A stretch of DNA of 64,000 bases, taken from NCBI GenBank assembly GCA_031270395.1, contig JAISXU010000057.1, forward strand, positions 18,363 through 82,362, read 5' to 3'. The position numbers and the translations under genes were made by a program. The notes under the pieces are model-generated. The model had not been told where the DNA came from. It worked only from the letters and a program-made list of their open reading frames with translations, and searched no databases. Positions 38,714-63,724 of the stretch are shown here, piece by piece (position 1 is the first letter of the stretch; each line of letters starts with the position of its first letter). The DNA is from Oscillospiraceae bacterium (lineage in GTDB: Bacteria > Bacillota > Clostridia > Oscillospirales > Oscillospiraceae).

Positions 38714-40669
38714 CTAACAATACCGCCCTATATCGCGCGCGACATGGAATGCGTTGCTGACGGCGCGCTCGAGATTCGCGGCGGCGCGGCAGTCGCCGAC
38801 GACGTGAAATTGCGCCGCGCAATCGAAAAACGCCTTTGCCTCGTCGTGGAGGGGGAGCACGCCGAGCGCGTTTATCACCGTATCGGCCGTAAATACCCGC
38901 TCCTCTCCCGTCACGGTGTCCTCGGCGACGACGCCCGTGTCGGTCACTCTTACGGCTTTGGTGTTAAAATTCATAACGACGCCGTATTTTTTTATCTCGA
39001 GGTTCAGCGCCTTGACGTGCAGGAAATTCCCCCCGTCGCTCACGCGGTCGAGCATTTCGAGCACTTGGACGCTCTTGCCGAGCGAGCCCAGATAGATGCC
39101 GAGCTCCGTTCCGGCCAAGCCCCCTCCGAGGATTATTACCGAACCGCCGGCGAGCGACGCGTCCGCGTAGACCTCCGTCACGCCGGCGACGTTCTTCCCC
39201 GCGATGCCGGGGATGGGCGGTACGGCCGGCCTGCCGCCCAGCGCTGCGACTACGACGTCCGCGCCCGCCGCACTCGCGTATTCCGGAGTGACCTCCGTGT
39301 TAAGCCGCACGTCAACGGCGGATTTCGCGAGCTGCCGCTCCATATAGTCCAGATACGCGCCCACGCGCCATTTGAACGGAGTCTTTTCCTCACAGCGCAG
39401 GACGCCGCCGAGCCGCGCTCCTTTTTCGCAGAGCACAACCTCGTGTCCGCGCCGGACACACGTGAGCGCCGCCTGCATACCGGCCGGTCCGCCGCCTATG
39501 ACCATCACGCGCTGTTTTTCCGGTTTCGCCGTCTCGCCGCGCAATTCGATGTCGTAGCCCTGCTCCGGGTTTACGGAGCACGTATAAAAGCCCGTGGGCA
39601 GCAGCACGGAAAAACAGTTGAGACAGCGCTGACACGGACGGATATCCTCCTCGCGGCCCTGACGCGCCTTGTTCGGCAGATCGGGGTCTGCTATCAGCGC
39701 GCGCGCCATTTCGACGACATCGGCCTTACCGGACGCGATTATCTCCTCCAACTGCTCCGGGTCCCCCAGCGAACCGATGGCCGCGACGGGTATTCTCACG
39801 CGCTTTTTCACATCGGCGGCATAGTGGACGTTGACGCCCTCGTCGAGGAACATGCTCGGGTGCGTCACGGTAAACACCTCGTCCACGTCATAGTTGCCCG
39901 TGGAGACGTGGACGAGATCTATGTATGGCTCAAACGCCTTCGCAAATTCGATTCCATCCTCAATACCGTAGCCGCCGTCGTACGCCTCGGAGCCGGAGAT
40001 ACGGACTTCTATGGGGTAACTCGGGCCGACATATCTCCGGATTGCCTGCAAGACGGCCACCGGCAGCCGCATACGGTTCTCAAGGGAACCTCCCCACCTG
40101 TCCTTGCGGGTGTTTGTCAGCGGGGACAGCCACTGGTGCAGCTGCCAGCCGTGCCCGGCGTGGACAGTCACCATGCCGAAGCCGACGCGCTTGGCAAACC
40201 CCGCCGCGCGCCCCCACTGCTCAATCGTCGCCTCGATCATTTCCTCGGGCATCGCCGGAACAAAACGCCCGTCGTGCTCGCCCTCCACCGGCGCGTAGGC
40301 GGGTCCCGGCTCGCTCCAATGGCGGTTGGCGGCCCAGCCCGCGTGCTGAAGCTCCGCGGAACAGACAGCGCCGTGCCGCTGCACGGTGTTGCACAGCCGC
40401 CCCAAGCTGTTCGCGGCCTTCGGGTCGTCAAGAACGAGGTGCTGATCCCCGTGCTTGCCGTACGCGCCGGACACGCACGTCTCCCCGACGCAGACGGACG
40501 CGGCGCCTCCCAGCGCCTTGCGCTCATAATACGCGATGCCGTCCGGCGTGATGAAGTCCTCGCTCGTGAAATCCCGGAAGCCCGTAGGTGCGGCAAATAT
40601 CCGGTTCTTGAAGAGTGTGTGCCCAAGTCTTATCGGCTCGAACACGCGCGGGTACTTTATGCTTTTCAT
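38714..40669 (-). CDS. Fe-S flavoenzyme of the 2-enoate reductase / 2,4-dienoyl-CoA reductase / BaiH class (ENR paralogue 1)
   Basis: Track ORF 38714..40933. I trimmed the start to ATG 40669 (MKSIKYPRVFEPIRLGHTLFKNRIFAAPTG) after GGAGGAAAG. N-terminal OYE-like TIM barrel, 4Fe-4S motif CQRCLNCFSVLLPTGFYTCSVNP, and an FAD/NAD(P) domain VMVIGGGPAGMQAA. 651 aa. Confidence 0.85.
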   Translation of the reverse strand: MKSIKYPRVFEPIRLGHTLFKNRIFAAPTGFRDFTSEDFITPDGIAYYERKALGGAASVCVGETCVSGAYGKHGDQHLVLDDPKAANSLGRLCNTVQRHGAVCSAELQHAGWAANRHWSEPGPAYAPVEGEHDGRFVPAMPEEMIEATIEQWGRAAGFAKRVGFGMVTVHAGHGWQLHQWLSPLTNTRKDRWGGSLENRMRLPVAVLQAIRRYVGPSYPIEVRISGSEAYDGGYGIEDGIEFAKAFEPYIDLVHVSTGNYDVDEVFTVTHPSMFLDEGVNVHYAADVKKRVRIPVAAIGSLGDPEQLEEIIASGKADVVEMARALIADPDLPNKARQGREEDIRPCQRCLNCFSVLLPTGFYTCSVNPEQGYDIELRGETAKPEKQRVMVIGGGPAGMQAALTCVRRGHEVVLCEKGARLGGVLRCEEKTPFKWRVGAYLDYMERQLAKSAVDVRLNTEVTPEYASAAGADVVVAALGGRPAVPPIPGIAGKNVAGVTEVYADASLAGGSVIILGGGLAGTELGIYLGSLGKSVQVLEMLDRVSDGGNFLHVKALNLEIKKYGVVMNFNTKAVRVTDTGVVAEDTVTGEERVFTADTVINALGVLPLHDEAKAFFDCAAQFHVVGDCRAAANLERAVSNAFHVARDIGRYC

Positions 40670-40817
40670 CGCTTTCCTCCTACTTATAATGTCTGTCACC
40701 CGATGGCAGTATATTACGCCGGTATGTAGACAAGTCAATAGTAATAAAGAAAAATCGTCGGATTTACTAATATCCCACCCGAATAATTGTACATATCGCA
40801 CAAAGAATCCGCGACGC

Positions 40818-40896
40818 GCGTTGACAATCGCCATGCCGTGTGCAATAATGCCATATAGAGGGTAAGTATAGAACACGACGGACGGGGCGGTGTGGA
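40818..40896 (+). repeat. duplicated promoter block, copy 1 (drives the SLH gene)
   Basis: GCGTTGACAATCGCCATGCCGTGTGCAATAATGCCATATA, a 20-nt insert, then ACGGACGGGGCGGTGTGGA. The same sequence occurs at 42548-42607. It contains TTGACA-17-AATAAT. Confidence 0.7.
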
Positions 40897-40912
40897 GGAG
40901 AAAGGTAAAAAA

Positions 40913-41989
40913 ATGAAGCTGATGAATGCACAAGTAAAAATGTTATCCGTCTTTATGGTAGCCGCGCTTTTACTCGTCGGCGGTTTGTTTTGTACAGCAG
41001 CGGCTTCTAACTCAGTGAACAACGAACCTTCCGAAACATCTGAATGGGCGCGTGACGAAATAGCATTGGCACACGAGCTGTATATATTACCTGCGGGAGC
41101 CTATGTTGGCGACCTCACAAGACCGATAACGCGTTATGAGTTTGTACGGTATGCGATGTATTTCTTAGCCGCACAGTACAACATGGAAATTGATGACTTT
41201 ATTACCACGATTATGGCGGTTCGTAAAATCTCGCCGGACTACTCTGCTTTTTCAGATGTTGAGGACGGCGTTGTTGCTTTGGCGAACACTCTTGGAATTA
41301 TCTCCGGCTACGGAGATGGAACGTTCAGGCCGCAGAGTCTGATAACTCGGCAAGAAGCCGCAAAAATGTTGCTTGACGTATACCACTGTTACGCCGAGCA
41401 GCCTGAACAACTAAGCAAAGACGTAGATTATCCGTTTTTGGATAAAATTGCGGATTGGGCGGCGGAGGCGGCTAAGACGATGTTTAACTGGAACGTTATG
41501 CACGGAGTGGGCGACAACCGCTTTAATCCGGGCGGAGATTACACCGTTGAGCAGAGTATTGTCACGTTTCATCGTTTATACCAAAACGCACCCGTGAGCC
41601 GCTCAAGCGCCAACATTAAACCCTTGCTTACGTTTAACGAGTCAATAGCAGACATAGAGAGTCATTTTGGGTTTCGAGTCGGTGGCCGCTTCGACCTTGA
41701 GAATTATACCGTCATATACGGAGTGACGACCGGAGTGCCTCACGGTCCTTACAATCTCTTGTGGATCATATACAAAGGCGGTGGTCGGCGCAACGTATTT
41801 TATCAGACGTTTAACGCGCAGTACACACAAAGCGATGGGTTGGGTAGCGGACTTCAGGGAATTCTAAGCGATTTTCTGATTTCGCCAGACGAAAACACGC
41901 TGATGTTTAACCGCGTTATCCCGGGTTCTGACCTTGTTGAGAAGTTTCGAGTCGACCTTAAAAGCGCAAAATTATCTCTCGACGAATGA
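40913..41989 (+). CDS. SLH-domain surface protein with uncharacterised C-terminal domain
   Basis: Start is ATG 40913 (MKLMNAQVKMLSVFMVAALLLVGGLF, signal). SLH-like units (..ISGYGDGTFRPQSLITRQEAAKML.., ..MHGVGDNRFNPGGDYTVEQSIVTF..). The gene is visibly AT-richer than the flanking DNA. Confidence 0.75.
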   Translation: MKLMNAQVKMLSVFMVAALLLVGGLFCTAAASNSVNNEPSETSEWARDEIALAHELYILPAGAYVGDLTRPITRYEFVRYAMYFLAAQYNMEIDDFITTIMAVRKISPDYSAFSDVEDGVVALANTLGIISGYGDGTFRPQSLITRQEAAKMLLDVYHCYAEQPEQLSKDVDYPFLDKIADWAAEAAKTMFNWNVMHGVGDNRFNPGGDYTVEQSIVTFHRLYQNAPVSRSSANIKPLLTFNESIADIESHFGFRVGGRFDLENYTVIYGVTTGVPHGPYNLLWIIYKGGGRRNVFYQTFNAQYTQSDGLGSGLQGILSDFLISPDENTLMFNRVIPGSDLVEKFRVDLKSAKLSLDE

Positions 41990-42370: not shown

Positions 42371-42547
42371 ACAATATATCACATGGACGCGCTGACTGTC
42401 AAGAGGAAATTTTGACCTGCCCGCCGACGGGCAGGTCAAGGGAACAATTACTTGCCATGCTTGCGGAAAACGCAGAAGAACACCCGCCCCGGAATAGCAC
42501 ACATACGCCCCCACCCCCCACAAAGACACGAAAACCAAACACCCCTG

Positions 42548-42607
42548 CGTTGACAATCGCCATGCCGTGTGCCATAATGCCATATAACGGACGGGGGGCG
42601 GTGTGGA
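42548..42607 (+). repeat. duplicated promoter block, copy 2 (drives the LysR gene)
   Basis: GCGTTGACAATCGCCATGCCGTGTGCCATAATGCCATATAACGGACGGGGGGCGGTGTGGA. Direct repeat of 40818-40896. TTGACA-17-CATAAT. Confidence 0.7.
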
Positions 42608-43495
42608 TTGGAAATTCAACATCTGAGATACTTCTTCTGGATATGTATGTCGGGCAGCTTCGCGAAAGCGGCGGAGAGGTGCAGCGTGTCCCAACAGGGT
42701 ATCAGCATGGCGATCAAGCGGATGGAGAACGAGCTCTCGTGCAAGCTGTTCGAGCGCTCGCGGAAGGGCATCGCGCTTACTGACCACGCCAGATACCTGC
42801 TGCCGGCCGCCGAGAGGATCATTCGCGTCATGGACAACTGCGATGCGTACTTCGCCTCCGGTATGGGGGAGAAGCCCGAGCTCCACATAGCCCTGACGTG
42901 GGGCGCCCCGGAGGAGTTCGCGGAGGCGCCGTTAGAGGAATTCAAACGCGAAAATCCGGACGTCTATCTCAATGTCAGGCATGATCATGACACGGGCTGC
43001 GAGGCCGCCGTAAGCGCGCACGAGGCCGAGTTCGCACTGTCGGCCGGGCCTGTGGAGCTCGCCCTGTATGACGCGCAGTTTCTCTGCGCCTCCCGCTACG
43101 GCATAGTCGCCCGGCGCGACGGGCCGTTTGCGGGGCGCGAGAGCGTGGACATGGCCGACCTCGACGGCGTCCCGCTCATCGTGATGCGCGAGTATCAAAA
43201 GACATTTCATGTTCTGAGCGCGGCCGCGGAGAGCACCGGCGTCCGGCTGAACGTACAGGAGCGCGTTGACAGCACGCTGCTCACGCACCAGTACGACGAT
43301 CCTGCGCGCGCGGGAATAACGACGCAGTCGCTCGCCGCGCGTTTCGCGAGCGCAAAGCTGGTCTTTCTGCCGTTTCGCGACCCGCCGCTGGACTGGGAGC
43401 TGTACCTCATTAAGCTGCGCGGCGGCGAGCTGTCTCCGCTCGCTGCCGAGCTGGAGCGGCGGCTGCTGGCGCATCGTCCGCACGGACTGCGCTAA
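42608..43495 (+). CDS. LysR-family transcriptional regulator
   Basis: TTG start. MEIQHLRYFFWICMSGSFAKAAERCSVSQQGISMAIKRMENELSCKLFERSRKGIALT is a LysR wHTH, followed by a substrate-binding domain. 295 aa. Confidence 0.85.
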   Translation: MEIQHLRYFFWICMSGSFAKAAERCSVSQQGISMAIKRMENELSCKLFERSRKGIALTDHARYLLPAAERIIRVMDNCDAYFASGMGEKPELHIALTWGAPEEFAEAPLEEFKRENPDVYLNVRHDHDTGCEAAVSAHEAEFALSAGPVELALYDAQFLCASRYGIVARRDGPFAGRESVDMADLDGVPLIVMREYQKTFHVLSAAAESTGVRLNVQERVDSTLLTHQYDDPARAGITTQSLAARFASAKLVFLPFRDPPLDWELYLIKLRGGELSPLAAELERRLLAHRPHGLR

Positions 43496-43496
43496 G

Positions 43497-43743
43497 CTCG
43501 CTTCCGGCTAAAGCCGAAAGCTCGCCCGCTCCGTCGTGCGTCCTCTCCGAAGCGAACCCACTTCGTTGGGCTTCGTTTCGGTTTTGGACGCGGGGACGCA
43601 TAAAGCCGAAAGCTCGCTCGCTTCGCGGTTCGTCCTCTCCGAAACGAACCCACTTCGCCCCGGTTGCGATTCGGCTTTGGACGTAGTTCTCGTGCCACAG
43701 CGAAAAGGACGTAAGAGCGATAACGAGTGCAAACGAAATTATT
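43497..43743 (-). repeat. family A-related repeat (copy A6, inverted) containing a tandem ~91-nt duplication
   Basis: It ends with CCACAGCGAAAAGGACGTAAGAGCGATAACGAGTGCAAACGAAATTATT, the reverse complement of the family A left end. Internally there are two tandem units TAAAGCCGAAAGCTCGC..CGTCCTCTCCGAA(G/A)CGAACCCACTTCG..TTGGACG (about 43509-43590 and 43600-43683). Confidence 0.6.
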
Positions 43744-43855
43744 CTATAAACATCACAAATTGTTTATTCCCAAGCCGTCTTTTTTGTGGATAATAGATAG
43801 CGAGACCTGACGGAGCAGCGCGTCAGGCAATTTGTATGGAATAGGAGAATCGAAA

Positions 43856-45082
43856 ATGAAAAAGCTACTTGCAATCCTTCTCGCAATGTGTCTCACCCTG
43901 TCGTTCTTCGCGTGCGCGCCGGAGGCATCGACGCCGAGCGGCGACACCGGCTCCCCGCCGCCCGCGGGCGGCGGGGACGACGCGCCGCCGGCCGACACGG
44001 GGACGCCGGCCGGCGGCGGCGACCAGCCCGGCACGTCGGCGCCGCCTCCGGCGAGCGCGGACGGCGTACCGCTCGGGACGCCGCTCGGCGGCGACCACTT
44101 CAGCCGGGAACCGTTCAAGATCGCCTATATCGTCAACATGCTGACGTGGGCGTTCAACAAGGCGATATCCGACGGGCTGGAGGCCACCGGCAAAAAGCTC
44201 AATTATGAGTACACCGCGTGGGCGGCAAACGGCGATTTCGACGCGTATGTGAACCAGATCTACACCTTCGCCGATCAGGGCTACGACGGGCTCATTCTCG
44301 GCACGGACGACGCGCTCTCCCCGCGCGCCTACGAGGCGGCCACGGAGGCCGGCATAGCGTTCGTGGGCGAATCCACCACGTTTATGAACGACGAGGGCTT
44401 GTGCATCTGGCCTAGCGTACAGCAGGCCCAGGTCCAAAACGGCGCGATGAGCGTTGAGTGGCTCGCGGCAAACTACAAAAACTTCTGGGGCGATGTGGAC
44501 CTCTCCGCCGTGAAGCTCGGACTCATCTGCCTCGACTTCTCCGGCGTATCCGGCATCACCGAGCGCAAGCCGGGCGTGAGCGGCAAGTTTGCCGAGATGT
44601 TCCCGAACGGGGAGTTCTTTGACGCCGACCTCGTCGCGCTCGGCAGCGAGGGCTTTTCCGTCCAGGGCGGACAGGACCTCACGTCGCAGCTTCTCTCCCA
44701 GAACCCGGGTATCGATAAATGGTTTGTCGTGGGTCTTGTGGACGACTGGTCCGTAGGCGCGACGCGCGCCGTGGAGCAGCTCAAGATGGAGGAAGACGTC
44801 CTCGTCGTCAGCATACAGGCCGACGCGTTCCTCGCCGAGATGGGCTCCGGAAATCAAGACAGCGTCTATGTGGCCGCGTGCGCCGTCTCGGCCAACGAGT
44901 TCGCCATCAATATGGCCAACTGCCTCGTCGCCATCCTTGACGGACGTACCACCGCCGAGGACATATGGCCCGAGTGGCGCGACGCCGGCGGCAGCTACCC
45001 GCGCATACAGGTAGCGGGCACTATGATCACGCCGGATACTTATCAGGATTATCTCACCGCGCAGAGCGCGCTGCTTGCCTGA
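43856..45082 (+). CDS. sugar/polyol-type ABC substrate-binding lipoprotein (PBP type I, RbsB-like)
   Basis: Start is ATG 43856 (MKKLLAILLAMCLTLSFFACAPE, lipobox). A Pro/Gly/Ala-rich linker follows, then FKIAYIVNMLTWAFNKAISDGLE..GYDGLILGTDD, typical of CUT2 binding proteins. Confidence 0.85.
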   Translation: MKKLLAILLAMCLTLSFFACAPEASTPSGDTGSPPPAGGGDDAPPADTGTPAGGGDQPGTSAPPPASADGVPLGTPLGGDHFSREPFKIAYIVNMLTWAFNKAISDGLEATGKKLNYEYTAWAANGDFDAYVNQIYTFADQGYDGLILGTDDALSPRAYEAATEAGIAFVGESTTFMNDEGLCIWPSVQQAQVQNGAMSVEWLAANYKNFWGDVDLSAVKLGLICLDFSGVSGITERKPGVSGKFAEMFPNGEFFDADLVALGSEGFSVQGGQDLTSQLLSQNPGIDKWFVVGLVDDWSVGATRAVEQLKMEEDVLVVSIQADAFLAEMGSGNQDSVYVAACAVSANEFAINMANCLVAILDGRTTAEDIWPEWRDAGGSYPRIQVAGTMITPDTYQDYLTAQSALLA

Positions 45083-48671: not shown

Positions 48672-48722
48672 CAAGATGGTTGACATGTGAAAAGAGACGT
48701 ACTTGAAAAGAGGTTATTATTA

Positions 48723-49181: not shown

Positions 49182-49196
49182 AATTTTCCCGTGGGA

Positions 49197-49534
49197 ATAA
49201 TTTCGTTTGCACACGTTTTCGCTCTTACGTCCTTTTCGCTGTGGCGAAAAGAATTTTTGCGAAGGAGTGCGCCCTCGTCGGAGCGAACTACACTGCGCTA
49301 CACCGCCCTATGGGCGGTATCCGCTCTGTTGCGTTGCTCCTCCTCTCCGAAATGAACCCGCTCCGCTGGGCTTCATTTCGGCCCCAGACGGGAGATGCAG
49401 AGCAAAAATTGTTATATTTCGCATGTTTCGGAAATTCATTTTCCGAAACATGCACTCTGCGAGCCGCGCACGGCGAGATCCAACCCTTCGTAACTCGTTT
49501 GTTACGGCTCAAGCCGTGACAAACGAAATGATTC
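49197..49534 (+). repeat. family A modular intergenic repeat, long form (copy A2), left flank of the GRE gene
   Basis: Same architecture as 7360-7580 plus a ~110-nt insert module (..GAGCGAACTACACTGCGCTACACCGCCCTATGGGCGGTATCCGC..CCGAAATGAACCCGCTCCGCTGGGCTTCATTTCGG..). The terminal hairpin is CGTTTGTTACGGC-tcaa-GCCGTGACAAACG. Confidence 0.75.
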
Positions 49535-49543
49535 AATAAACGC

Positions 49544-55216: not shown

Positions 55217-55352
55217 TATATCATAAATTGCTATGCAATTTATGATATATCGCCATGCGGCGCGTCCCGCGCCGCGGCTCAAAGTTTAAGCGCGCGCCCG
55301 CACAGCGGGCGCATGCGCGCGATATAATATCCGCTCTGCGGATATTATATCA
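55217..55352 (+). repeat. family B four-hairpin repeat (copy B4) between convergent ENR genes
   Basis: TATATCATAAATTGC-tat-GCAATTTATGATATA; GCCATGCGGCGCG..CGCGCCGCGGC; GCGCGCCCGC-acag-CGGGCGCATGCGC; GATATAATATCCGC-tct-GCGGATATTATATC. The last arm contains the TAA stop of 55345..57315. Confidence 0.7.
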
Positions 55353-57315
55353 TACCGGCTATGAAATACGCCGCCTTAGTAGCCTCGCGTATGTTCCTCG
55401 GCGTCAGACAGTCGCCAATCTGGTGGAACTCGGGCGCGAGGAAGCGCAGCGCGTCCGCCTCGTCCCACAGGGGGCGCTGTCCGACTGCGTAAATAACGGT
55501 GTCGGCGGCAAACGTCACGCGCGCGCTGTCCGGCCCCTGCGCCAATACGCCGTCGCCGCCTATCTCCAATGTTCTCGTACCCAGCGCGAGCTCTACGCCC
55601 ATTTCGCGCAGCTTCACATCGAGCGCCAACCCGTGCAGTTGATTGCCTCCGTCGGACAGCGCGGGCATCAGCTCGACGACGGCGACGCTCCTGCCGAGCT
55701 CCGCCAGAAATATCGCAAGCTCCGTGCCGACGAGTCCGCCGCCCAGCACGACGACGCGTCCGCCGGCGAGTTCCGTGTTGAGATAGATGTCCTCGGCGCC
55801 GTACACGCGCGGGCCGTCGATCCCCACGATATCCGGCTTTACCGGGCGGGCGCCGAGCGCCGCTATGACGACTTGCGGCGCCACGTCGCGCACGAGCTCC
55901 GGCGTCGCCTCAACGCCGAGCCGTAGGTCTATATTCGCGCCCATGACCTTGTATTCCTGTAAATCGAGGTATTTTGAGAGCTTTTCCTTGAACGGGACGT
56001 CGCGCTCGCAGCGCAGCGCGCCGCCCAGCCGCTCCGATTTTTCGCAGAGTATGACGTCGTGCCCGCGCCGCGACGCCGTGAGCGCCGCCTGCATCCCGGC
56101 GACGCCGCCGCCCGCCACGAGTACGGTTTTCCGCTTTGACGCGGGCGCTATTCGCTCGGCCTGCAGCTCGACGCCTATCTCCGGGTTGACGGCGCAGCAG
56201 AACTGCCGGTTGGACAGCAGATTGGAAAAACAGGTGAAGCAGCGCATACACCGGACTATGTCGTCCCCGCGACCCGCGCGCGCCTTTGCCGGCATGTCCG
56301 GATCCGCTATGAGCTCGCGCGCGAGCTCCACGACGTCAGCGCGCCCGGAGGCGATGGTTTCCTCCATCAGCTCGGGCTCGGTGAACGCCCCCACGGTGGC
56401 CACGGGCGTCTTGACGTGTTTTTTTATCTCGGCGGCGAGATACGCGTTGCAGCCGTCGGGCAGAAACATCGACGGGTGAGTAATAACGAACGCGTCCTTT
56501 ACCTCGTGGTGTCCCGCCGACGCGTGTATGAGATCGACATGTCCGTCAAGCGCCATAGCTATCTTGACGCCCTCGTCCACACCGTAGCCGCGCGGATTCG
56601 CCTCCGTGGCGGACATGCGGAATTCGATCGGAAAGCCCTTGCCGCACCTCTCGCGTATGCGGTCGGCGACGGCAAGCGGGAAGCGCATCCTGTTCTCGAA
56701 CGAGCCGCCCCACATATCGTCGCGCGTGTTGACGAACGGCGACAGGAACTGGGACATAAGCCAGCCGTGTCCGCCGTGTATGAGCACCATACCGAAGCCG
56801 CACCGCTTGGCAAACAGCGCGGCCGAGGCGTACGCCTCTATGGTATCCTCAATGACGTCCGCGGTCATCGCCAGCACGCGTGTGCCGTCGCCGGACGCGT
56901 GCGCAATCTCGCCCCGCATCGACTCGACGGCGACGGGCCCGTAGACGGCGTTGCCGAGCTTCCCGGACTGCTCCGCGTACATGCCCGCGTGCTGCAGCTC
57001 CGCGACGGCGACGGCGCCGTATTGCGATATGCCCTCCGCCAGAGCGGTCAGCGCGCCGATAGACTCCGGATCATTGAGCGGTATATGGTTCTGCCCGCCC
57101 TTGCCGTGCTTTGAGTCCACAATGCACTCGCCCACAGCCACGGACGCGCAGCCGCCCTTCGCCTTGCGCGCGTAGTACGCCACCGCCTCCGCCGTCGGAA
57201 ATTCCTCGGCGGTAAGCTCCTGATAGCCCGTGGGCGCGCCGAATATGCGGTTGCGGAACAGCGTATTGCCAAGCCTTATAGGCGAGAAGAGATGCGGATA
57301 CTTACACTCGTACAT
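55345..57315 (-). CDS. Fe-S flavoenzyme, 2-enoate reductase/BaiH class (ENR paralogue 3)
   Basis: 656 aa. FSPIRLGNTLFRNRIFGAPTG, CMRCFTCFSNLLSNRQFCCAVNP, VLVAGGGVAGMQAA, VVVLGGGLVGTE. Closest by eye to paralogue 1. Confidence 0.85.
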   Translation of the reverse strand: MYECKYPHLFSPIRLGNTLFRNRIFGAPTGYQELTAEEFPTAEAVAYYARKAKGGCASVAVGECIVDSKHGKGGQNHIPLNDPESIGALTALAEGISQYGAVAVAELQHAGMYAEQSGKLGNAVYGPVAVESMRGEIAHASGDGTRVLAMTADVIEDTIEAYASAALFAKRCGFGMVLIHGGHGWLMSQFLSPFVNTRDDMWGGSFENRMRFPLAVADRIRERCGKGFPIEFRMSATEANPRGYGVDEGVKIAMALDGHVDLIHASAGHHEVKDAFVITHPSMFLPDGCNAYLAAEIKKHVKTPVATVGAFTEPELMEETIASGRADVVELARELIADPDMPAKARAGRGDDIVRCMRCFTCFSNLLSNRQFCCAVNPEIGVELQAERIAPASKRKTVLVAGGGVAGMQAALTASRRGHDVILCEKSERLGGALRCERDVPFKEKLSKYLDLQEYKVMGANIDLRLGVEATPELVRDVAPQVVIAALGARPVKPDIVGIDGPRVYGAEDIYLNTELAGGRVVVLGGGLVGTELAIFLAELGRSVAVVELMPALSDGGNQLHGLALDVKLREMGVELALGTRTLEIGGDGVLAQGPDSARVTFAADTVIYAVGQRPLWDEADALRFLAPEFHQIGDCLTPRNIREATKAAYFIAGMI

Positions 57316-57392: not shown

Positions 57393-58304
57393 CTATTTGC
57401 TCACCGTACATTCAAAGCCGTGCTTTTCAAAAATCGCGCGCGTGCGGTCAAGCTCCTCCGGGGTACACTCGCGCAGCTCGTCAAGCGCGTACTCCATGCC
57501 TATGGAGGCGTACTTGTTGGCGCCATACTTGTGGTATGGCAGAACGGAGATCGCGGCGGAGGGCGCTATACCGCGCACCATCGCCGCCGTCGCCTCCATG
57601 TTTTCCTCCGAGCTGTTGTACTCCGGTATGAGCGGTACGCGTATCGTTATATCGACACCGGAGCCGGCTGCCAGACGCAAATTATCAATTATAGTATCAA
57701 GCGGAACACCCATCAGCTCCTCGTGGCGGCGCGGGTCCATATGTTTGATGTCGAAGTACACGAGATCGGCGTATTCGAGAACGGCGCGCATCGCCTCCGG
57801 GGAGCCGAAGCCCGACGTGTCGGCGCACGTGTGTATGCCCTCCTCACGGCACTTTTTGAAAATTGCCGCGACAAAATCCGGCTGAGCCAGTATCTCTCCG
57901 CCGGAGCACGTCACGCCGCCGCCGGAGGTCTCGTAGTACACGGCGTCGCGCCTTATGACCTTCCACACCTGATTTACGCTCATGCGTTCGCCCTTGACCG
58001 TAAGGGCCTCGGCGGGACACTCGCGAACGCACGTCCCGCAGACTACGCACCTCGCGCGGTCGATCGATATGCCGTCGCCCGTCACGGTTATCGCGCCGTT
58101 CGGACAGACGCCGGCGCACGTCCCGCACTTCTTACAGGACGTGTAGCGGTACTGTAGCTGCGGCGCCGGGCTCTGCGACTCCGGGTTTGAACACCACGGA
58201 CACCGCAGGGGACACCCCTTGAAAAAGACCGTCGTGCGTATCCCCGGCCCGTCGTCTATGCTGTACCGCTGAATATTGAATACAATGCCCTCAATACTGC
58301 TCAT
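57393..58304 (-). CDS. glycyl-radical enzyme activating protein (radical SAM, two extra ferredoxin-like clusters)
   Basis: CPLRCPWCSNPE (CX3CX2C), CKKCGTCAGVCPNGA and CVVCGTCVRECPAEA, GGVTCSGGE. 303 aa. Confidence 0.9.
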   Translation of the reverse strand: MSSIEGIVFNIQRYSIDDGPGIRTTVFFKGCPLRCPWCSNPESQSPAPQLQYRYTSCKKCGTCAGVCPNGAITVTGDGISIDRARCVVCGTCVRECPAEALTVKGERMSVNQVWKVIRRDAVYYETSGGGVTCSGGEILAQPDFVAAIFKKCREEGIHTCADTSGFGSPEAMRAVLEYADLVYFDIKHMDPRRHEELMGVPLDTIIDNLRLAAGSGVDITIRVPLIPEYNSSEENMEATAAMVRGIAPSAAISVLPYHKYGANKYASIGMEYALDELRECTPEELDRTRAIFEKHGFECTVSK

Positions 58305-58345: not shown

Positions 58346-59167
58346 TCAGCCGTTGCTTCCCGTCGGGGTTTTGCCGAGCAGGAAGCTCTGCGCGTGCGAG
58401 TAGACGTATCCGATGCCCCCGCCGACGTACATGCACAGGCCCGTGATATACGCCGACAGCTCGCTGCACAGAAACAGCGTCGGCCCCGCTATGTCGTCCG
58501 CCGTGCCTATTCGCCCGAGCGGTACCTCGTGGCGCGCTATGCCGTCGAGCAGGCTTTCAAGCTCGTCTCCGGAGGCCAGCTCGTCCCAAAACGACGTGCG
58601 TATCGGCCCGGGCTTTATGCAGTTGACGCGTATCCCCAGCGGCGCCACCTCCATGGCGAGATTCACCGTGAGCGACTCGCAGCCGGCTTTCGCCATATGG
58701 TACGAATACGCGGGCGTGGTGGGATTAAACGCGCCGTTTGACGAGCATATCACGATTTTGCCCGATTTCCGCTCCTTCATATGCGGGAGTACGGTGAAAA
58801 CCGTGTTGTACGTACCCGTCATGTTCGATTCTATGGTCTTCTCATAACTGGTCTTGGGGTCAAGGCCCTCGCCGTCGAAGGTCTTGCCCGCGAACGACGC
58901 TAAAATGTCGATTTTGCCGAATTCCGCGAGCGTCTTATCGACGGTAAGCCTGTTGCTCTCCGCGCTCGTGACGTCAAGCGGCCCGTAGTACCGCGCCGTG
59001 CCGCCCGCGGCGCCTATTTCCGCCGCCAGCCGCTCGCCCTTGCCGACGCTCCTGCCGCCTATTACGACGGCCGCGCCCTCTTTAGCGAACAGTCTCGCCA
59101 CAGCCTCACCCATTCCGCTCGTCGCGCCGGTGATTATGGCGACCTGTCCATCAAGCATTTTTTCCAT
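58346..59167 (-). CDS. SDR-family oxidoreductase (classical, FabG/glucose-DH-like)
   Basis: ITGATSGMGEA, catalytic YHMAKAG, PGPIRT. 273 aa. Confidence 0.85.
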   Translation of the reverse strand: MEKMLDGQVAIITGATSGMGEAVARLFAKEGAAVVIGGRSVGKGERLAAEIGAAGGTARYYGPLDVTSAESNRLTVDKTLAEFGKIDILASFAGKTFDGEGLDPKTSYEKTIESNMTGTYNTVFTVLPHMKERKSGKIVICSSNGAFNPTTPAYSYHMAKAGCESLTVNLAMEVAPLGIRVNCIKPGPIRTSFWDELASGDELESLLDGIARHEVPLGRIGTADDIAGPTLFLCSELSAYITGLCMYVGGGIGYVYSHAQSFLLGKTPTGSNG

Positions 59168-59202: not shown

Positions 59203-59607
59203 TTAAAGCAGAACTATTTCGCGCAATTCGTTCAACGGAGCCAGATCCCTTATCTCGGTTGCAAAACCAAATGCCTTGCGCGCATCGCTGTCGCTTATTT
59301 CAAACTCATCCGGATAGCGGGGAACGATGCCGAATTGAGTCAAAAATTCAGAAGCGTTCTTTATCTCATTGAAACGGGCATCATAACTTAAGCACATCCT
59401 ACTCAGGCGCGTAATGTCGTGAGTATACGGCGGCTCGTCTATACCCCTGAATATTAAAAAGGCTTTCAACCACTTTTCGGCCGCCTGTTGACAGTGAAAA
59501 CAAATAATATCGCCGGGTAAGGGGTAATGGCCGAAAATAAACTCTGCTACACTATAATCTCCATCCGCTTTGGCGAACCACATGCGGACATATTTGTCAT
59601 TTGCCAT
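59203..59607 (-). CDS. HEPN-domain protein (toxin partner of MNT)
   Basis: 134 aa. ..CFHCQQAAEKWLKAFLIFRG..YTHDITRL..GIVPRYPDE.. matches the HEPN (PF05168-type) pattern. It overlaps the upstream NTase gene by 11 nt. Confidence 0.75.
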   Translation of the reverse strand: MANDKYVRMWFAKADGDYSVAEFIFGHYPLPGDIICFHCQQAAEKWLKAFLIFRGIDEPPYTHDITRLSRMCLSYDARFNEIKNASEFLTQFGIVPRYPDEFEISDSDARKAFGFATEIRDLAPLNELREIVLL

Positions 59608-59947
59608 ACAGTCGAACCCCTTTTTTGGAAATTACACGTTCAAGAGTGGGGCCGTCTTTTCTGTCCGCGAATATAGCGGACTTTTTGACAAATAAATCTG
59701 CGGAATGATCTAACTTGTCGTAAAAGTCGCCGCGTATTTCCATGGCAATATCCAATTCGCGCTTACTCACAGAATCCGGCACTATGACGCAGATATCAAG
59801 ATCGCTGTCTTTATGCGGATTTCCGTAAGCATATGAACCAAACAGATACATCGCCTCAGTGTTTGGTACAATGGCTAAAACGCTTTCTTTGACGATATCC
59901 AGCTTTTTTTGAATCTCCGGTGTTTCATACGGATACATAGGATGCAA
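59597..59947 (-). CDS. minimal nucleotidyltransferase (MNT antitoxin-type)
   Basis: 116 aa. LFGSYAYGNPHKDSDLDICVIV matches the GSxxxGxxxxxSDxD polymerase-beta NTase motif. Confidence 0.8.
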   Translation of the reverse strand: MHPMYPYETPEIQKKLDIVKESVLAIVPNTEAMYLFGSYAYGNPHKDSDLDICVIVPDSVSKRELDIAMEIRGDFYDKLDHSADLFVKKSAIFADRKDGPTLERVISKKGVRLYGK

Positions 59948-60042: not shown

Positions 60043-60813
60043 TCAGCTGTAATACTCCGGCGAGCGGCGCAGCGTCTCAAACTGGGCGAGGTCGTGTCCG
60101 TACCATATCTCGGCGCCGCGCTCCTTCGCGAGCGCGAGAGTGTACTCCAGAGCGCGCAGCCAGTTGTCGGGGTCTCTGCATATGCCGGGTCTGCGCAGCG
60201 GCGGCCCGACGTTCTCCGACGAGTAGATCACGTCGGAGATGAGCAGCTTATTTCCGTCATTTTGCAGCTCCAGCAGGAGCCCCAGCATTCCGTAGGAGTG
60301 GCCGCGCCCGAAGTTGACTATCGTCACGCCCGGCATGAGCGCCTTGAACTTCACACTGTCGTCAAACAGGCTCCATTTCAGGCCCTGCTGCATGAAATAG
60401 GCGACGTCCTTTACAAACGGGAAGCGCCCCATCGCAGCATCCTTCAGTATGCCTGTGAATTCATTGTCCGACACTATTATTTCGGCGTTCGGGAATTTGT
60501 CGATGTACCCGAAGTGGTCGGGGTGCATATGCGAGAGCAGGATGTACTTTATATCCTGCGGCTCGACGCCCGCCTCGCGCACGCGGTACACGGGGTCGTC
60601 CTCCGGCTCCATGCGGAGATTTTCCATTATGAACGGAGCCTGACGCTCCGGGTTGAGGTGGCACGCCGCGTCGAACAGTATGTTCCCATCCGGGTGCTTT
60701 ATGAGCACCGTCCACGACGGGAAATTAAACCTCTCGTCCGGGTCGTCACAGGCGATGAGCTCGTTTTTTATACTGTTGATATTCATACCGTTTTTAAGTA
60801 CATATACTTTCAT
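60043..60813 (-). CDS. MBL-fold metallo-hydrolase (lactonase-like)
   Basis: Start is ATG 60813 (MKVYVLKNG..). LLSHMHPDHFGYID is the HxHxDH motif, with a later GHSYG. 256 aa. Confidence 0.75.
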   Translation of the reverse strand: MKVYVLKNGMNINSIKNELIACDDPDERFNFPSWTVLIKHPDGNILFDAACHLNPERQAPFIMENLRMEPEDDPVYRVREAGVEPQDIKYILLSHMHPDHFGYIDKFPNAEIIVSDNEFTGILKDAAMGRFPFVKDVAYFMQQGLKWSLFDDSVKFKALMPGVTIVNFGRGHSYGMLGLLLELQNDGNKLLISDVIYSSENVGPPLRRPGICRDPDNWLRALEYTLALAKERGAEIWYGHDLAQFETLRRSPEYYS

Positions 60814-60840
60814 AACACAGCACCTCACGTAGAATTATCT

Positions 60841-61047
60841 CGTATGTACTCGCTATCGCTCTCTCGTCCTTTTCGCCTGTGGCGAAAAGAATTTTTGTGA
60901 AGGAGTGCGTCCCGTGCGACTAAGCAAAAATTGTTATATCTCCGTCAGTAGATGGAATTCATTTCCATCTACTGACACTTTGCGAGCCGCGCACGGCGAG
61001 ATCCAACCCTCGTAACTCGTTTGTTACGACACAGTCTTAACAAACGA
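60841..61047 (+). repeat. family A modular repeat, short form (copy A4)
   Basis: ..CTCTCTCGTCCTTTTCGCCTGTGGCGAAAAGAATTTTTGTGAAGGAGTGCG... The variable hairpin is GTCAGTAGATGGAA-ttca-TTCCATCTACTGAC. Conserved core TTTGCGAGCCGCGCACGGCGAGATCCAACCCTCGTAACTCGTTTG. Terminal hairpin CGTTTGTTACGAC-aca-GTCTTAACAAACG. Confidence 0.65.
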
Positions 61048-61049
61048 CG

Positions 61050-62498
61050 TCACTCCGCCAGATTTATCGTTATCATCTTCTGCTCGGTGTACTCGAGGAC
61101 GCCCTGCTTGCCGCCCTCCTTGCCTATGCCGCTCTCGCGGACGCCGCCCCACGGCGCTTCCGCGCAGATGAGATTGTGCGCGTTGACCGAGAACGTGCCG
61201 ACGGTGAGGCGCTTGCCGAGCTTGAGCGCGTGGGCGATGTTGCGCGTCCAGATGGACGCCGTGAGACCGTACGTGTTGTCGTTGGCCAGGCGTATGACCT
61301 CGTCCTCGTCGCTCCACTTCGTCGTGACGGCAACCGGCCCGAATATCTCCTCGCGGTATATCTTCATCTCGGGCGTCACGTCCGTGAATATCGTCGGCTC
61401 AATGAATACGCCCTTGTCTCCCCAGCGCTTGCCGCCGTAGAGCAGCTTCGCGCCCTCCTTGACACCGGACTCAATGTAACCCATGACCTTGTTGAAATGC
61501 TCCGTGGAGACCATCGGCCCCATCGTCGTCTCTTTCTTTGTCGGGTCGCCGAGTACCTGATGCTTTGCCACGGTGAGCAGCTTTTCAATAAACTCGTCGT
61601 ACACGCTCTCGTGTATGTAATAGCGCCCCGGCGAGCCGCACGCCTGTCCGCAGTTGAAGAACTGATGGTGTCCGAGACTCTCTATGGCGAGGTCGAGGTT
61701 GGCGTCCGGGAAGATGATGGCGGGGTTCTTGCCGCCAAGCTCCATTATGACCTTCTTGATCGTCGGCGCGGCGGCCTGCATGATGGATACGCCGGTCTCC
61801 GTCGAGCCGGTGAAGCCCACGGCGTCAACTCCGGGGTGCGACGCCAGCGCGTTGCCGACTGACGAGCCGGGCCCTGTTATCACGTTGACGACGCCCTTTG
61901 GCAGCTCGTCCACGCTGTCCACGACCTCCGCGAGGAACAGTCCGACGAGCGAGTTTGTGGACGGCGGCTTGACGACGCACGTGTTGCCCGTGGAGATGGC
62001 CAGCGCTATCTTTTGACTCATGAGGAACAGCGGCAGATTCCACGGGATGATGAGCGCGCAGACGCCTATGGGTACGCGGTCGAGGCAGTACATGACGTTC
62101 GGCGAGCGCCCGGAATTGCTGATGAAATCTCCCATTATGCTGTGCGCGTAGGTGGCCGCCATCTCAAAGTTGCCGCAGGCGCCCATCGTCGGCCCGAAGC
62201 CGAGCTCCTCCGGCATACCGTGCTCCTGCGCGGCGAGGTGCGCCGCCTCCTTCGCGCGGGCGCGCAGCGCGGCGCCTATCTTGCGCAGAACGTTCGAGCG
62301 CTTCTCCTGCGTCAGACCCGACCACTCGGGGAACGCCGCGCGCGCCGCCGCGACCGCCCTGTCGATGTCCTCCGCTCCGGCGCACGGAACCTCCCCGAAC
62401 GTCTCGTCCGTGGACGGGTTATACGTGTTGATCGTCTTGCCCGATACCGCGTCTACCCACTGTCCGCCTATAAGCATTTTCTTTGTTATTGTGTCCAT
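61050..62498 (-). CDS. NAD(P)-dependent aldehyde dehydrogenase
   Basis: Start is ATG 62498 (MDTITKKMLIGGQWVD). MELGGKNP, catalytic-Cys region FFNCGQACGSPGR, EEIFGPV. 482 aa. Confidence 0.9.
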   Translation of the reverse strand: MDTITKKMLIGGQWVDAVSGKTINTYNPSTDETFGEVPCAGAEDIDRAVAAARAAFPEWSGLTQEKRSNVLRKIGAALRARAKEAAHLAAQEHGMPEELGFGPTMGACGNFEMAATYAHSIMGDFISNSGRSPNVMYCLDRVPIGVCALIIPWNLPLFLMSQKIALAISTGNTCVVKPPSTNSLVGLFLAEVVDSVDELPKGVVNVITGPGSSVGNALASHPGVDAVGFTGSTETGVSIMQAAAPTIKKVIMELGGKNPAIIFPDANLDLAIESLGHHQFFNCGQACGSPGRYYIHESVYDEFIEKLLTVAKHQVLGDPTKKETTMGPMVSTEHFNKVMGYIESGVKEGAKLLYGGKRWGDKGVFIEPTIFTDVTPEMKIYREEIFGPVAVTTKWSDEDEVIRLANDNTYGLTASIWTRNIAHALKLGKRLTVGTFSVNAHNLICAEAPWGGVRESGIGKEGGKQGVLEYTEQKMITINLAE

Positions 62499-62536
62499 GA
62501 CATGTACCTCCGATAAATAAATATAGATTGCACCCA

Positions 62537-62581
62537 TTTTCGTAACTCGTTTGTAACGACTTTAGCCGTTACAAACGAAAG
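62537..62581 (+). repeat. family A terminal-hairpin fragment (copy A5)
   Basis: CGTAACTCGTTTGTAACG-actttagc-CGTTACAAACGAAAG, between the ADH stop and the ALDH start. Confidence 0.45.
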
Positions 62582-63724
62582 TCAGTGCTCGTGCCCGCAG
62601 TCGCACGTCCTCTTGCGGTTGTCGATCGCGCCCTTGATGTCCTTGCCGAGACGCATGTTTTCAAGCGCCGCGTCGATGTCCTCCAGCTCATACGTCGCGG
62701 AGAGCATCTTCGAGAAATCGATCTCGTGGCGGTGCGCCTCGATGAATTTCAGCGCCTTGTAGAAGTGCTTCGCGTCGGCGGAGCCCGAGCCGATGACGCA
62801 GGCCTGCTTCTGCTGGAGCTTGTTCGGTATGAACTCCACGGGGTTGGGCGAGGTCTGGCCCATGACGAGGTACGTGGCGTCCTTGCACATAAAATCAAAA
62901 CCCTCGTTGAACGCGCTCTTTGCGCCGGCGGCCTCGATGATGAATTCCGCGCCGCGCCCCTCTGTGAGATCGCGGACGACCTGGACGCGCTCCTCGTGCG
63001 TCGTTTCCAGAATGTTCAGCGTCACGGAGGCGCCCCATTCCTTTGCCAGATTGAGCCGTTCCGCCGGGGCGCCTATCGTGACGACGCGCGACGCGCCCGA
63101 GTAGTATGCCAGCAGCGTGGAGTACAGGCCGATAGGCCCGCAGCCCTGCACGACGACGACATCGCCCGTGCCTATCGGGCTGTGCCTCTGCAAACGCTCA
63201 AAGCCCGACACCACGGTGCGGAACGCGCAGCCGACGCCGATAGCCTCCTCGTCGGTGACGCTCTCCGGCACAAGGACGATCTCCGTTTTAGGCGTCACCA
63301 TGACGTACTCGGCGAAGCCGCCGCGCAGATTGTCGGGATGGACAAACCCGTAGCCCGTGCCGAACGAGTTGCACATGTACGGCTTGCGCGCGACGCGGCA
63401 GTAGTAGCACTCGCCGCAGAACGGGTGCGCCCACATGATGCGGTCGCCCACCTTTAGCTCGCGGCATCCGATGTCGAGCTTGCGGTCGCCGCCTATGGCG
63501 ACTATCTCTCCCAGTGTCTCGTGTCCCTGCAATACCGGCGTGTTCGTCGGGATGGACAGCTCGTTGCGCGCCTGATGCACGTCCGTGCCGCATATGCCCG
63601 CCAGCAGTACGCGCGCGAGCACTCCGCCCTGTTCCAGCTCCGGAACGGGGACATCCTTGATCTCCAGCGGCTTGAAAGCCTCCGTAAGTACCGCCGCCTT
63701 GACCTTTGTCGGGATCTTGCTCAT
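62582..63724 (-). CDS. zinc-dependent medium-chain alcohol/polyol dehydrogenase
   Basis: GICGTDVH, GHETLGEIV, structural-Zn lobe CGECYYCRVARKPYMC, Rossmann segment VVVQGCGPIGL. 380 aa. Confidence 0.85.
   Translation of the reverse strand: MSKIPTKVKAAVLTEAFKPLEIKDVPVPELEQGGVLARVLLAGICGTDVHQARNELSIPTNTPVLQGHETLGEIVAIGGDRKLDIGCRELKVGDRIMWAHPFCGECYYCRVARKPYMCNSFGTGYGFVHPDNLRGGFAEYVMVTPKTEIVLVPESVTDEEAIGVGCAFRTVVSGFERLQRHSPIGTGDVVVVQGCGPIGLYSTLLAYYSGASRVVTIGAPAERLNLAKEWGASVTLNILETTHEERVQVVRDLTEGRGAEFIIEAAGAKSAFNEGFDFMCKDATYLVMGQTSPNPVEFIPNKLQQKQACVIGSGSADAKHFYKALKFIEAHRHEIDFSKMLSATYELEDIDAALENMRLGKDIKGAIDNRKRTCDCGHEH

Follow-up and report, generated by a model that had tools for sequence, protein, structure and literature searches.

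The closest described systems resemble parts of the locus reported here. In the bai operon of Clostridium scindens, a hydroxyl group is removed reductively and stepwise by iron-sulfur flavin enzymes of the old yellow enzyme (OYE) type (BaiCD and BaiH), the NTF2/SnoaL-like dehydratase BaiE together with BaiI, the short-chain dehydrogenase/reductase (SDR) BaiA and a transporter. A second group comprises glycyl radical enzymes (GREs) such as the B12-independent glycerol dehydratase (GD; C. butyricum DhaB1, PDB 1R8W), propanediol dehydratase (PD), HypD, HpfG, CutC and YbiW/PflD. A third is the class of 2-enoate reductase, 2,4-dienoyl-CoA reductase (DCR) and 2-naphthoyl-CoA reductase (NCR), and a fourth the oxidative pathways that combine a sugar 1-dehydrogenase with a lactonase. 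Here we describe a region of about 25 kb (positions 38714 to 63724) that holds a GRE and its radical-SAM activase, three ene-reductases (ENR1 to ENR3), an NTF2-like protein and a sugar-type importer; it lies in the window, by which we mean the whole stretch of 64,000 nucleotides that was analysed (GenBank assembly GCA_031270395.1, contig JAISXU010000057.1, positions 18,363 to 82,362), and its host is an uncultured termite-gut Oscillospiraceae bacterium.

We read this region as a mosaic catabolic locus that acts on an imported hydroxyl-rich sugar-, cyclitol- or arylglycerol-like compound by elimination, isomerisation, ene-reduction and carbonyl redox, and we give this reading a probability of roughly 45%. 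We infer the reaction order, the individual enzyme roles and the substrate class as follows. The hydroxyl-rich compound would be imported by a LysR-controlled ATP-binding cassette (ABC) system of the CUT2 type, and the GRE, activated by the radical-SAM enzyme, would then perform a radical 1,2-elimination, a dehydration-type C-O cleavage beside a hydroxyl, to yield a carbonyl. The ketosteroid isomerase (KSI)/SnoaL-like protein might next provide enolisation chemistry (double-bond migration or beta-elimination) leading to a conjugated enone or enoate, the conjugated C=C of which the Fe-S flavin ENRs would reduce; an alcohol/sugar dehydrogenase (ADH) paired with a lactonase, an aldehyde dehydrogenase (ALDH) and an SDR would take care of the redox steps at the lactol/lactone, aldehyde and ketone level. 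Overall this would amount to a reductive deoxygenation, with a logic like that of bile-acid 7-alpha-dehydroxylation joined to a GRE diol-dehydratase step. The genes concerned, identified by open reading frame (ORF) calling and by Pfam and NCBIfam scans of the window proteins, are these:

38714-40669, minus strand: ENR1, an ene-reductase with OYE (FMN), 4Fe-4S and FAD/NAD(P)H parts (Pfam Oxidored_FMN and Pyr_redox_2; motif CQRCLNC...C)
42608-43495, plus strand: LysR-type regulator, upstream of the transporter operon (Pfam HTH_1 and LysR_substrate)
43832-45082, plus strand: CUT2-type solute-binding lipoprotein with a long Pro/Gly/Ala linker (Pfam Peripla_BP_4)
45156-46127 and 46141-47178, plus strand: two BPD_transp_2 permeases (Pfam)
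47178-48671, plus strand: ABC ATPase with two fused ABC domains (Pfam)
48723-49181, plus strand: NTF2-like (SnoaL/ketosteroid-isomerase-like) protein of about 152 aa (homologue alignment, AlphaFold2, Foldseek)
49608-52052, plus strand: GRE of 814 aa, C-Q-E-I clade (PFL-like and Gly_radical domains; Cys450, Glu452, His175, Gly790)
53166-55097, plus strand: ENR2, an ene-reductase paralogue (OYE and Pyr_redox; Pfam)
55345-57315, minus strand: ENR3, an ene-reductase (OYE and Pyr_redox; Pfam), last gene of the minus-strand operon
57393-58304, minus strand: GRE-activating radical-SAM enzyme (TIGR02494; CX3CX2C and two ferredoxin motifs)
58346-59167, minus strand: classical SDR with TGxxxGxG and YxxxK motifs (ORF, Pfam, NCBIfam)
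60043-60828, minus strand: lactonase of the metallo-beta-lactamase (MBL) fold with an HMHPDH motif, likely start at 60813 (Pfam, NCBIfam, PDB relatives)
61050-62537, minus strand: NAD(P)-dependent ALDH (Pfam Aldedh, 527 bits; below all NCBIfam equivalog cut-offs)
62582-63724, minus strand: Zn-dependent alcohol/sugar dehydrogenase (the ADH) of the medium-chain dehydrogenase/reductase (MDR) family, at the head of the minus-strand operon (Pfam ADH_N, ADH_zinc_N and Glu_dehyd_C)

A preliminary description of this DNA, made by reading the sequence, had listed these genes, and the ORFs, Pfam and NCBIfam bear out each of them at its coordinates. It had placed the activase 5 kb from the GRE on the other strand, in agreement with the measured 5.3 kb, and had reported no microcompartment shell genes, a point with which our motif scan of the window, which found no shell signature, concurs. 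Its assignment of three OYE+4Fe-4S+FAD enzymes to the 2-enoate reductase/BaiH class is confirmed for all three as regards architecture, and its NTF2-like label is upheld by the predicted fold.

The GRE carries both domains of its superfamily (PF02901 with 454 bits and PF01228 with 93 bits in Pfam), and a motif scan located its glycine motif VVRIAG(790)YSAYF and its cysteine loop IIGC(450)QEI. With GD, PD, HypD, HpfG, CutC and YbiW/PflD it shares the fold, the domains, the glycyl-radical motif and the Cys-x-Glu element. Its NCBIfam equivalog scores (bits/cut-off) are HpfG 409/1000, HypD 395/1100, CutC 339/1050, indoleacetate decarboxylase 349/1100, 4-hydroxyphenylacetate decarboxylase (HPAD) 283/1150 and PFL 101/994; as all of these are far under the cut-off, we rejected HypD, CutC, HpfG/HpsG, indoleacetate or 4-hydroxyphenylacetate decarboxylase, PFL and a PflD-type enzyme as its identity. 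The best solved relative in the PDB is GD (386 bits, 32.5% identity). Residue-level alignment with GD shows equivalents of His164, Cys433, Glu435 and Tyr640 retained in the GRE, and His281, Ser282 and Asp447 replaced by Pro, Ala and Asn, together with a 5-residue insertion, so that the GD/propanediol-dehydratase pocket is present only in respect of His164 and Tyr640. The GRE further differs from GD in its C-Q-E-I loop (C-V-E-P in GD), and from GD and the GRE 1,2-eliminases in the lack of a microcompartment and in the association of the GRE with ENR and NTF2-like genes.

In GD, His164 is the acid that protonates the leaving hydroxyl, and in the C-x-E motif of GRE 1,2-eliminases and isomerases the glutamate hydrogen-bonds the substrate hydroxyl (PMC13450708). 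The residue of our GRE that aligns with GD His164, His175, is invariant in 97 of 97 clade members examined, and C450-Q-E452, likewise invariant across the clade, conforms to C-x-E. By the criteria of that review, this motif and the conserved histidine indicate that the chemistry is most likely of the 1,2-eliminase or isomerase type, next to a hydroxyl group. The window also resembles GD and the GRE 1,2-eliminases in its radical-SAM activase with two extra ferredoxin-type clusters (TIGR02494, 349 bits against a cut-off of 174; CPLRCPWC plus two ferredoxin-type motifs). As for the earlier proposal that the GRE radically dehydrates its substrate to an aldehyde or ketone, C-x-E and the histidine fit a dehydratase-type 1,2-eliminase; the role itself we infer.

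An alignment of 117 GREs taken from the fetched loci delimits the group to which this enzyme belongs. Every homologue at 52-97% identity has the C-Q-E-I loop and the motif YGA[SA]DH, and the C-V-E-P loop is that of GD and of paralogues at 35-40% identity, which often stand in tandem with clade members. The loop matching GD 281-282 falls into discrete subtypes, SMPAP in the window GRE and RIPSP, RTPSP, DPGVT, xxDIG or CVAF elsewhere. Many genomes contain several clade paralogues, and the window's own metagenome-assembled genome (MAG) has at least three further GREs at another locus (L039; loci other than the window are given under our own L numbers). The clade has hundreds of members, distributed over Oscillospiraceae, Lachnospiraceae, Sporomusa and sulfate-reducer or syntroph lineages; the closest relative of the window GRE (97% identity) is found in the Oscillospiraceae MAG Pcl387_bin43, and close relatives of the GRE, the NTF2-like protein and the lactonase come nearly all from MAGs or metagenomes of the termite-gut series. 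On the shared C-Q-E-I loop, the discrete pocket-loop subtypes and the many paralogues per genome, the GRE is, as judged from these alignments, a member of a large, pocket-diversified clade outside the characterised GRE families, a clade that is not among the GRE classes in a review of June 2026 (PMC13450708). Together with the sub-threshold equivalog scores and the distance from GD, this sustains the preliminary description in placing the GRE outside the characterised pathways.

We note separately that in Oscillospiraceae from the guts of ruminants and humans a tandem recurs in which a C-Q-E GRE of the RTPSP subtype is followed by a C-V-E-P GRE (about 38% identical) and then by an activase (L035, L038, L041, L044, L047, L050, L066 and others, at about 10001-15900 in each). 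The C-V-E-P enzyme of the tandem also stays under every NCBIfam equivalog cut-off, and the two unassigned GREs appear to share one activase. The C-V-E-P paralogues that adjoin NTF2 and ENR genes (L098, L087, L050) are likewise unassigned.

The NTF2-like ORF opens at 48687 (164 aa), and homologues start at Met13, that is at 48723, which is probably the true start as judged from the alignment. The 164-aa protein has no sequence-level match in Pfam, NCBIfam or the PDB. Its AlphaFold model, built from 29 sequences (pLDDT 88, pTM 0.80), was matched by Foldseek to the SnoaL-like structure 3i0y, to ketosteroid isomerase, to Trt14 and to limonene epoxide hydrolase (LEH) with a probability of 1.0 and template-modelling (TM) scores of 0.6-0.78, and it is on these matches that the label rests: by its modelled fold the protein is NTF2-like, of the SnoaL/ketosteroid isomerase branch. 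Some homologues carry weak SnoaL or SnoaL_2 matches. Asp82 and Asp122 are invariant and Asp40 near-invariant in the family alignment. A profile-profile comparison with a KSI query sequence (hhalign) puts Tyr14 on Tyr14 weakly, at E=0.013 and a probability of 3%, which is too weak to establish the KSI catalytic triad (Tyr14/Asp38/Asp99). The family is rare: it comprises 35 clusters at 90% identity, and a search of 1.84 billion representative proteins yielded only 136 clusters at E<=1e-3. Where the GRE is absent, the gene that follows the NTF2-like one (L091, 9606-10691; L092, 524-1609) encodes a protein of 361 aa, in which a weak TrmB-like N-terminus precedes a C-terminal 2x[4Fe-4S] ferredoxin domain, and this protein may be an alternative partner.

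All three ENRs have the OYE-Fe-S-FAD architecture, with an Oxidored_FMN barrel, the 4Fe-4S motif CxxCxxC...C and a C-terminal FAD/NAD(P)H domain, and the cluster motif and two GxGxxG Rossmann motifs are common to them and to the 2-enoate reductase/DCR/NCR class; for ENR3 the best PDB relatives are NCR (6QKG, 273 bits) and DCR (1PS9, 233 bits). They depart from that class in that they reach no equivalog cut-off and occur as three divergent paralogues in one locus, ENR1 and ENR3 being 49% identical and ENR2 sharing about 35% identity with either. For all three, BaiCD is one of the highest-scoring NCBIfam models; the scores (bits/cut-off) are 374-386/825 for BaiCD, 328-364/750 for the long form of BilR and 378-404/793 for mycofactocin OYE2, and with all of them below the cut-off we rejected the ENRs as BaiCD, bilirubin reductase or mycofactocin OYE2 equivalogs.

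In outline the window matches the parts list of the bai operon (ENRs, NTF2-like protein, SDR, transporter), but its ENRs score about 380 bits against the BaiCD cut-off of 825, its NTF2-like protein matches no NCBIfam model, BaiE and BaiI included, its importer is a sugar-type ABC system and not a transporter of the major facilitator superfamily (MFS), and it has a GRE, which bai does not. The annotated genes of 37-64 kb contain no domains of a BaiB CoA ligase, a BaiF CoA transferase or a BaiE-family dehydratase. Given the NCBIfam scores and the lack of CoA-handling genes, we do not regard the locus as a bai system.

The importer has the CUT2 layout in Pfam, a Peripla_BP_4 binding protein with BPD_transp_2 permeases and an ATPase with two ABC domains, and the LysR, transporter and NTF2 genes form a plus-strand string. 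A near-identical 40-nt box (39 of 40 bases), containing the strong promoter-like site TTGACA-17-TGTGC[A/C]ATAAT, occurs at 40818-40857 and 42547-42586, upstream of a gene for an S-layer homology (SLH) protein and of the LysR gene, respectively; the box may have arisen by duplication of a promoter or may serve both genes as a regulatory site.

On the minus strand the genes follow one another co-directionally with gaps of 44 bp (ADH to ALDH), 221 bp (ALDH to lactonase), 95 bp (lactonase to a MNT/HEPN pair), 35 bp (from that pair to the SDR), 41 bp (SDR to activase) and 77 bp (activase to ENR3), and an AT-rich region upstream of the ADH gene is read as the promoter region. ADH, ALDH, lactonase, SDR, activase and ENR3 are apparently one operon, and this tight co-directional packing ties the activase and a “core” ENR physically to the lactone and aldehyde enzymes in the window genome. 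The lactonase has the HMHPDH motif, its best PDB relatives are the AaL/GcL lactonases (163-168 bits), and it reaches 184 bits with the NCBIfam AhlS model, the cut-off of which is 475. Elsewhere, in L110, the genes of an ADH orthologue (66%) and a lactonase orthologue (64%) overlap, the latter starting within the end of the former, with an aldehyde:ferredoxin oxidoreductase (AFOR) and an SDR alongside, and another lactonase (56%) stands in the order LysR / TRAP-SDR-ENR-lactonase-SDR (L112). With the oxidative pathways of sugar 1-dehydrogenase and lactonase the window shares an MDR dehydrogenase with a Glu_dehyd_C match paired with an MBL lactonase, the pair being conserved in L110; as compared to those pathways and to the acyl-homoserine lactone (AHL)-type lactonases, the window lacks an aldonate dehydratase or aldolase, its lactonase is under the AhlS cut-off, and its ADH and lactonase genes share their surroundings with those of a GRE activase and an ENR.

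How far these genes belong together was assessed by comparing all window proteins (tblastn) with 79 loci centred on GREs in other genomes, and by an unbiased clustering of the neighbours of clade GREs in 84 loci. A sister contig (L008, GRE 97% identical) keeps the order binding protein-permease-permease-ATPase-NTF2-GRE. Of the 79 loci, 9 have an ENR no more than 10 kb from the clade GRE, and in 7 of these the distance is at most 2 kb; orthologues of the window ENRs near clade GREs are of the ENR2 type in L021 and L025 (61-64%) and of the ENR3 type in L055 and L056 (56%), and one locus (L061) reads ENR-GRE-activase-ENR. ENR3 orthologues (54-57%) stand beside a GRE, an NTF2 gene or an ABC transporter in L055, L056, L088, L091, L095 and L098. 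For instance, GRE(59%)-NTF2-NTF2-ENR, with the ENR 54% identical to ENR3, is found in L088, L089 and L100; NTF2-GRE-ENR, with a C-V-E-P type GRE and an ENR at 57%, in L098; and NTF2-NTF2-ENR, with an ENR of the ENR2 type (63%), in L107. In L091 an ENR (55%) is divergent from binding protein (59%)-permease-ATPase (68%)-permease-NTF2 (77%), the permeases being 54% identical to those of the window, with no GRE on the 14-kb contig. The NTF2 gene occurs together with CUT2 genes in L095, L096 and L102 as well (permeases 53-54% in L095 and L102), and in L087 it has two GREs and LysR genes nearby; no other family marks the neighbourhood as sharply as the NTF2-like one.

The recurrent pairwise links are GRE-ENR, NTF2-ENR, NTF2-CUT2 ABC, NTF2-GRE, ADH-lactonase and lactonase-SDR-ENR. 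Because the same families recur side by side in other genomes, the grouping of the window genes exceeds chance; co-conservation of the locus is partial. The unbiased clustering found as neighbours of the clade GREs an activase in 17 of the 84 loci, a uroporphyrinogen decarboxylase (URO-D)-like gene in 11, an SDR in 9, DUF169 in 9, an AFOR in 7 and an Fe-ADH in 4, and also ENRs, all of these counts being lower bounds since the choice of the longest ORF picks up antisense ORFs in high-GC loci. URO-D-like, DUF169 and AFOR neighbours, seen in L001, L007, L059, L087, L110 and other loci of the GRE family, might point to a role of the clade in the metabolism of aldehydes or methoxy-aromatics.

The preliminary description had taken the 25 kb as one locus, and here it must be revised: the region is no conserved unit. 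At least two recurrent modules make up a mosaic that also contains an SLH gene, two toxin-antitoxin pairs and repeats like those of miniature inverted-repeat transposable elements (MITEs), none of which the preliminary description had mentioned. The features that give it this character are:

7360-7595: dispersed repeat copy inside an unrelated ABC operon
40892-41989, plus strand: SLH-domain protein
43496-43831: dispersed repeat, diverged copy
49182-49530: dispersed repeat copy, between the NTF2 gene and the GRE promoter
52053-52380: dispersed repeat copy, inverted, 94% complementary to 49239-49487
52486-52716 and 52713-53129, plus strand: VapB-like small ORF without Pfam match, overlapping a PIN toxin (Pfam)
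59203-59607 and 59597-59947, minus strand: HEPN and MNT nucleotidyltransferase, a toxin-antitoxin pair inside the operon (Pfam)
60829-61049: dispersed repeat, short-form copy between the lactonase and ALDH genes
62537-62580: dispersed repeat, hairpin-only fragment

The dispersed intergenic repeat has a long form of about 340 nt and a short form of about 220 nt, with a conserved terminal hairpin AACTCGTTTGTTACGGC...GCCGTGACAAACGA. The copies at 49182-49530 and 52053-52380 bracket the GRE in inverted orientation, with arms of 249 nt. The repeat has no Rfam match, a copy sits in an unrelated operon, copies are found in either direction with respect to the genes around them, and the repeat is missing from L008, where the NTF2-GRE spacer is 94 bp; for these reasons it looks like a MITE or a repetitive extragenic palindromic (REP)-like element that, to judge from its distribution, was recently inserted. 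On the same grounds we rejected it as a riboswitch or locus-specific regulator, and the distribution and the L008 absence also led us not to take the bracketing copies for a sign that the GRE came in on a cassette. The VapB-like/PIN pair, between the GRE and ENR2, is an inserted toxin-antitoxin system and no pathway gene; the MNT/HEPN pair lies within the ADH-to-ENR3 string.

Several findings weigh against our reading of a catabolic locus. GRE orthologues stand alone in unrelated contexts (86% in L009, 75% in L004 and L005, 71% in L006, 69% in L007), the one in L009 having MutS-like genes and an amino-acid ABC system on its flanks, and the Sporobacter and Sporomusa members (62-63%) sit in other contexts; in L008 itself, the gene directly downstream of the GRE differs from that in the window. 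Homologues of ALDH, ADH and lactonase are absent within 10 kb of the GRE in all 79 loci searched by tblastn. The GRE-ENR association extends to about 10% of clade loci only, a share that stands without a background ENR rate for comparison. The window GRE has its own promoter-like site (TTGCAA-17-TAGAAT, conserved in L008) and is set off from its neighbours by repeats and a toxin-antitoxin pair. The binding protein has weak similarity to sugar-binding proteins in the PDB (E about 1e-5), the NTF2-like protein could be a binding or scaffold subunit and not an enzyme, and sequence alone names no substrate for the locus.

The expectations of the preliminary description were accordingly borne out in part. 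Of the co-occurrence of GRE, ENR, ALDH, ADH and CUT2 that it had asked to see in other genomes, ENR, NTF2 and CUT2 genes do recur near clade GREs or near each other, and ALDH and ADH do so in none of the 79 loci. Its proposal that ALDH and ADH act on the carbonyl product is weakened by the same absence, although AFOR and Fe-ADH beside clade GREs elsewhere fit an aldehyde or ketone. It had named flanks that are not co-conserved with the GRE as grounds for refutation, and such flanks were found for the stand-alone orthologues at 69-86% identity, against which stand the recurring pairs.

Alternatively, two or three independent units with different substrates might have been juxtaposed by rearrangement in a region rich in repeats and toxin-antitoxin genes, namely a CUT2 ABC-NTF2-ENR unit, a stand-alone GRE that shares a genome-wide activase, and an ADH-lactonase-ALDH-SDR unit. 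The stand-alone GRE orthologues would then need no further comment, nor would the ABC-NTF2-ENR set without a GRE in L091 or the lactonase modules of L110 and L112, which have neither a GRE nor an NTF2 gene; the GRE's own promoter-like site, the MITE-like repeats, VapBC, HEPN/MNT and SLH genes that break up the region, and the further GREs of the same MAG at L039 fit as well. It is difficult to reconcile with such a history that the activase and ENR3 share one tight co-directional string with SDR, lactonase, ALDH and ADH, that ENR2 and ENR3 orthologues and NTF2 genes recur beside GREs in other genomes, and that the lactonase recurs with an ENR in L112. We consider this juxtaposition somewhat unlikely.

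Another possibility is that the substrates are lignin-derived phenylpropanoids, with the GRE dehydrating an arylglycerol or aryl-diol side chain, the ENRs being of the cinnamate/enal type, the Zn-ADH and ALDH interconverting cinnamyl-type alcohols, aldehydes and acids, and the lactonase opening dihydrocoumarin-like lactones. Members of the clade do occur in degraders of (methoxy-)aromatics and their relatives (Sporobacter termitidis, Papillibacter, Sporomusa, Syntrophorhabdales, Desulfatiglandales) and in termite-gut and rumen MAGs, but host physiology is circumstantial. The URO-D-like family supplies O-demethylase methyltransferases, and genes of this kind adjoin clade GREs in the 11 of 84 loci mentioned above, but the window contains no O-demethylase, CoA-ligase or ring-reduction genes. 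The loop at GD His281/Ser282 now consists of small or hydrophobic residues that vary by subtype, and among the matches of the lactonase is a weak one to an ancestral dihydrocoumarin hydrolase. The importer, for its part, is of the CUT2 sugar type with a Peripla_BP_4 binding protein, and the known aromatic-acid ABC binding proteins belong to other families. On balance we find a phenylpropanoid substrate improbable. That the GRE is a divergent glycerol/1,2-propanediol dehydratase, with ALDH and ADH disproportionating the aldehyde as in deoxy-sugar fermentation, is very improbable, for although GD is its best solved relative, the equivalents of GD His164, Cys433, Glu435 and Tyr640 are conserved and both dehydrogenases are present, the low identity to GD, the exchanged pocket residues with their insertion, the C-Q-E-I loop and the absence of microcompartment genes all tell against it, and it leaves the ENR/NTF2 associations and the many pocket-variant paralogues per genome unexplained.

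Returning to the mosaic catabolic locus, we may speculate further that C-Q-E-I GREs, the KSI-like NTF2 family and reductases of the ENR2/ENR3 type constitute an undescribed anaerobic pathway of radical dehydration, isomerisation and ene-reduction in termite-gut and rumen Clostridia, which would strip hydroxyls from lignocellulose-derived diols (cyclitols like quinate and shikimate, anhydro- or deoxy-sugars, arylglycerol side chains), with pocket-variant GRE paralogues feeding different substrates into one reductive module. In this full form the proposal is quite doubtful. In the library of papers searched, none places a GRE in the same pathway as NTF2-like proteins, old yellow enzymes, or enoate or ene-reductases, and none describes such a cluster; papers on anaerobic benzene and the reductive uric-acid pathway were considered as precedents and rejected, neither involving a GRE-ENR system. 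The components are of known superfamilies, but neither the clade nor its partners nor the implied cascade has been characterised.

Two further features of the window lie upstream of the GRE locus. A cobalamin riboswitch (Rfam RF00174, 79.5 bits) at 24007-24238 on the minus strand, upstream of minus-strand genes, is unrelated to the locus, and a very large ORF of 1782 aa occupies 8975-14323 on the minus strand.

GREs carry out chemically difficult anaerobic reactions, and whenever a further clade was assigned, a new gut or environmental pathway has so far come to light, for instance for choline, hydroxyproline, sulfonates or anhydro-sugars (PMC13450708). The locus offers three handles on a large unassigned clade, namely the diagnostic C-Q-E-I loop, a rare NTF2-like partner and specific ENR orthogroups. 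Its partial recurrence in related bacteria suggests a still unknown anaerobic route that removes hydroxyl groups from a plant-derived compound. If the proposed cascade is true, the reductive deoxygenation of plant polyols or of fragments of lignin in the guts of termites and ruminants would follow a new enzymatic logic, and the cascade would be a source of new oxygen-free biocatalysts.

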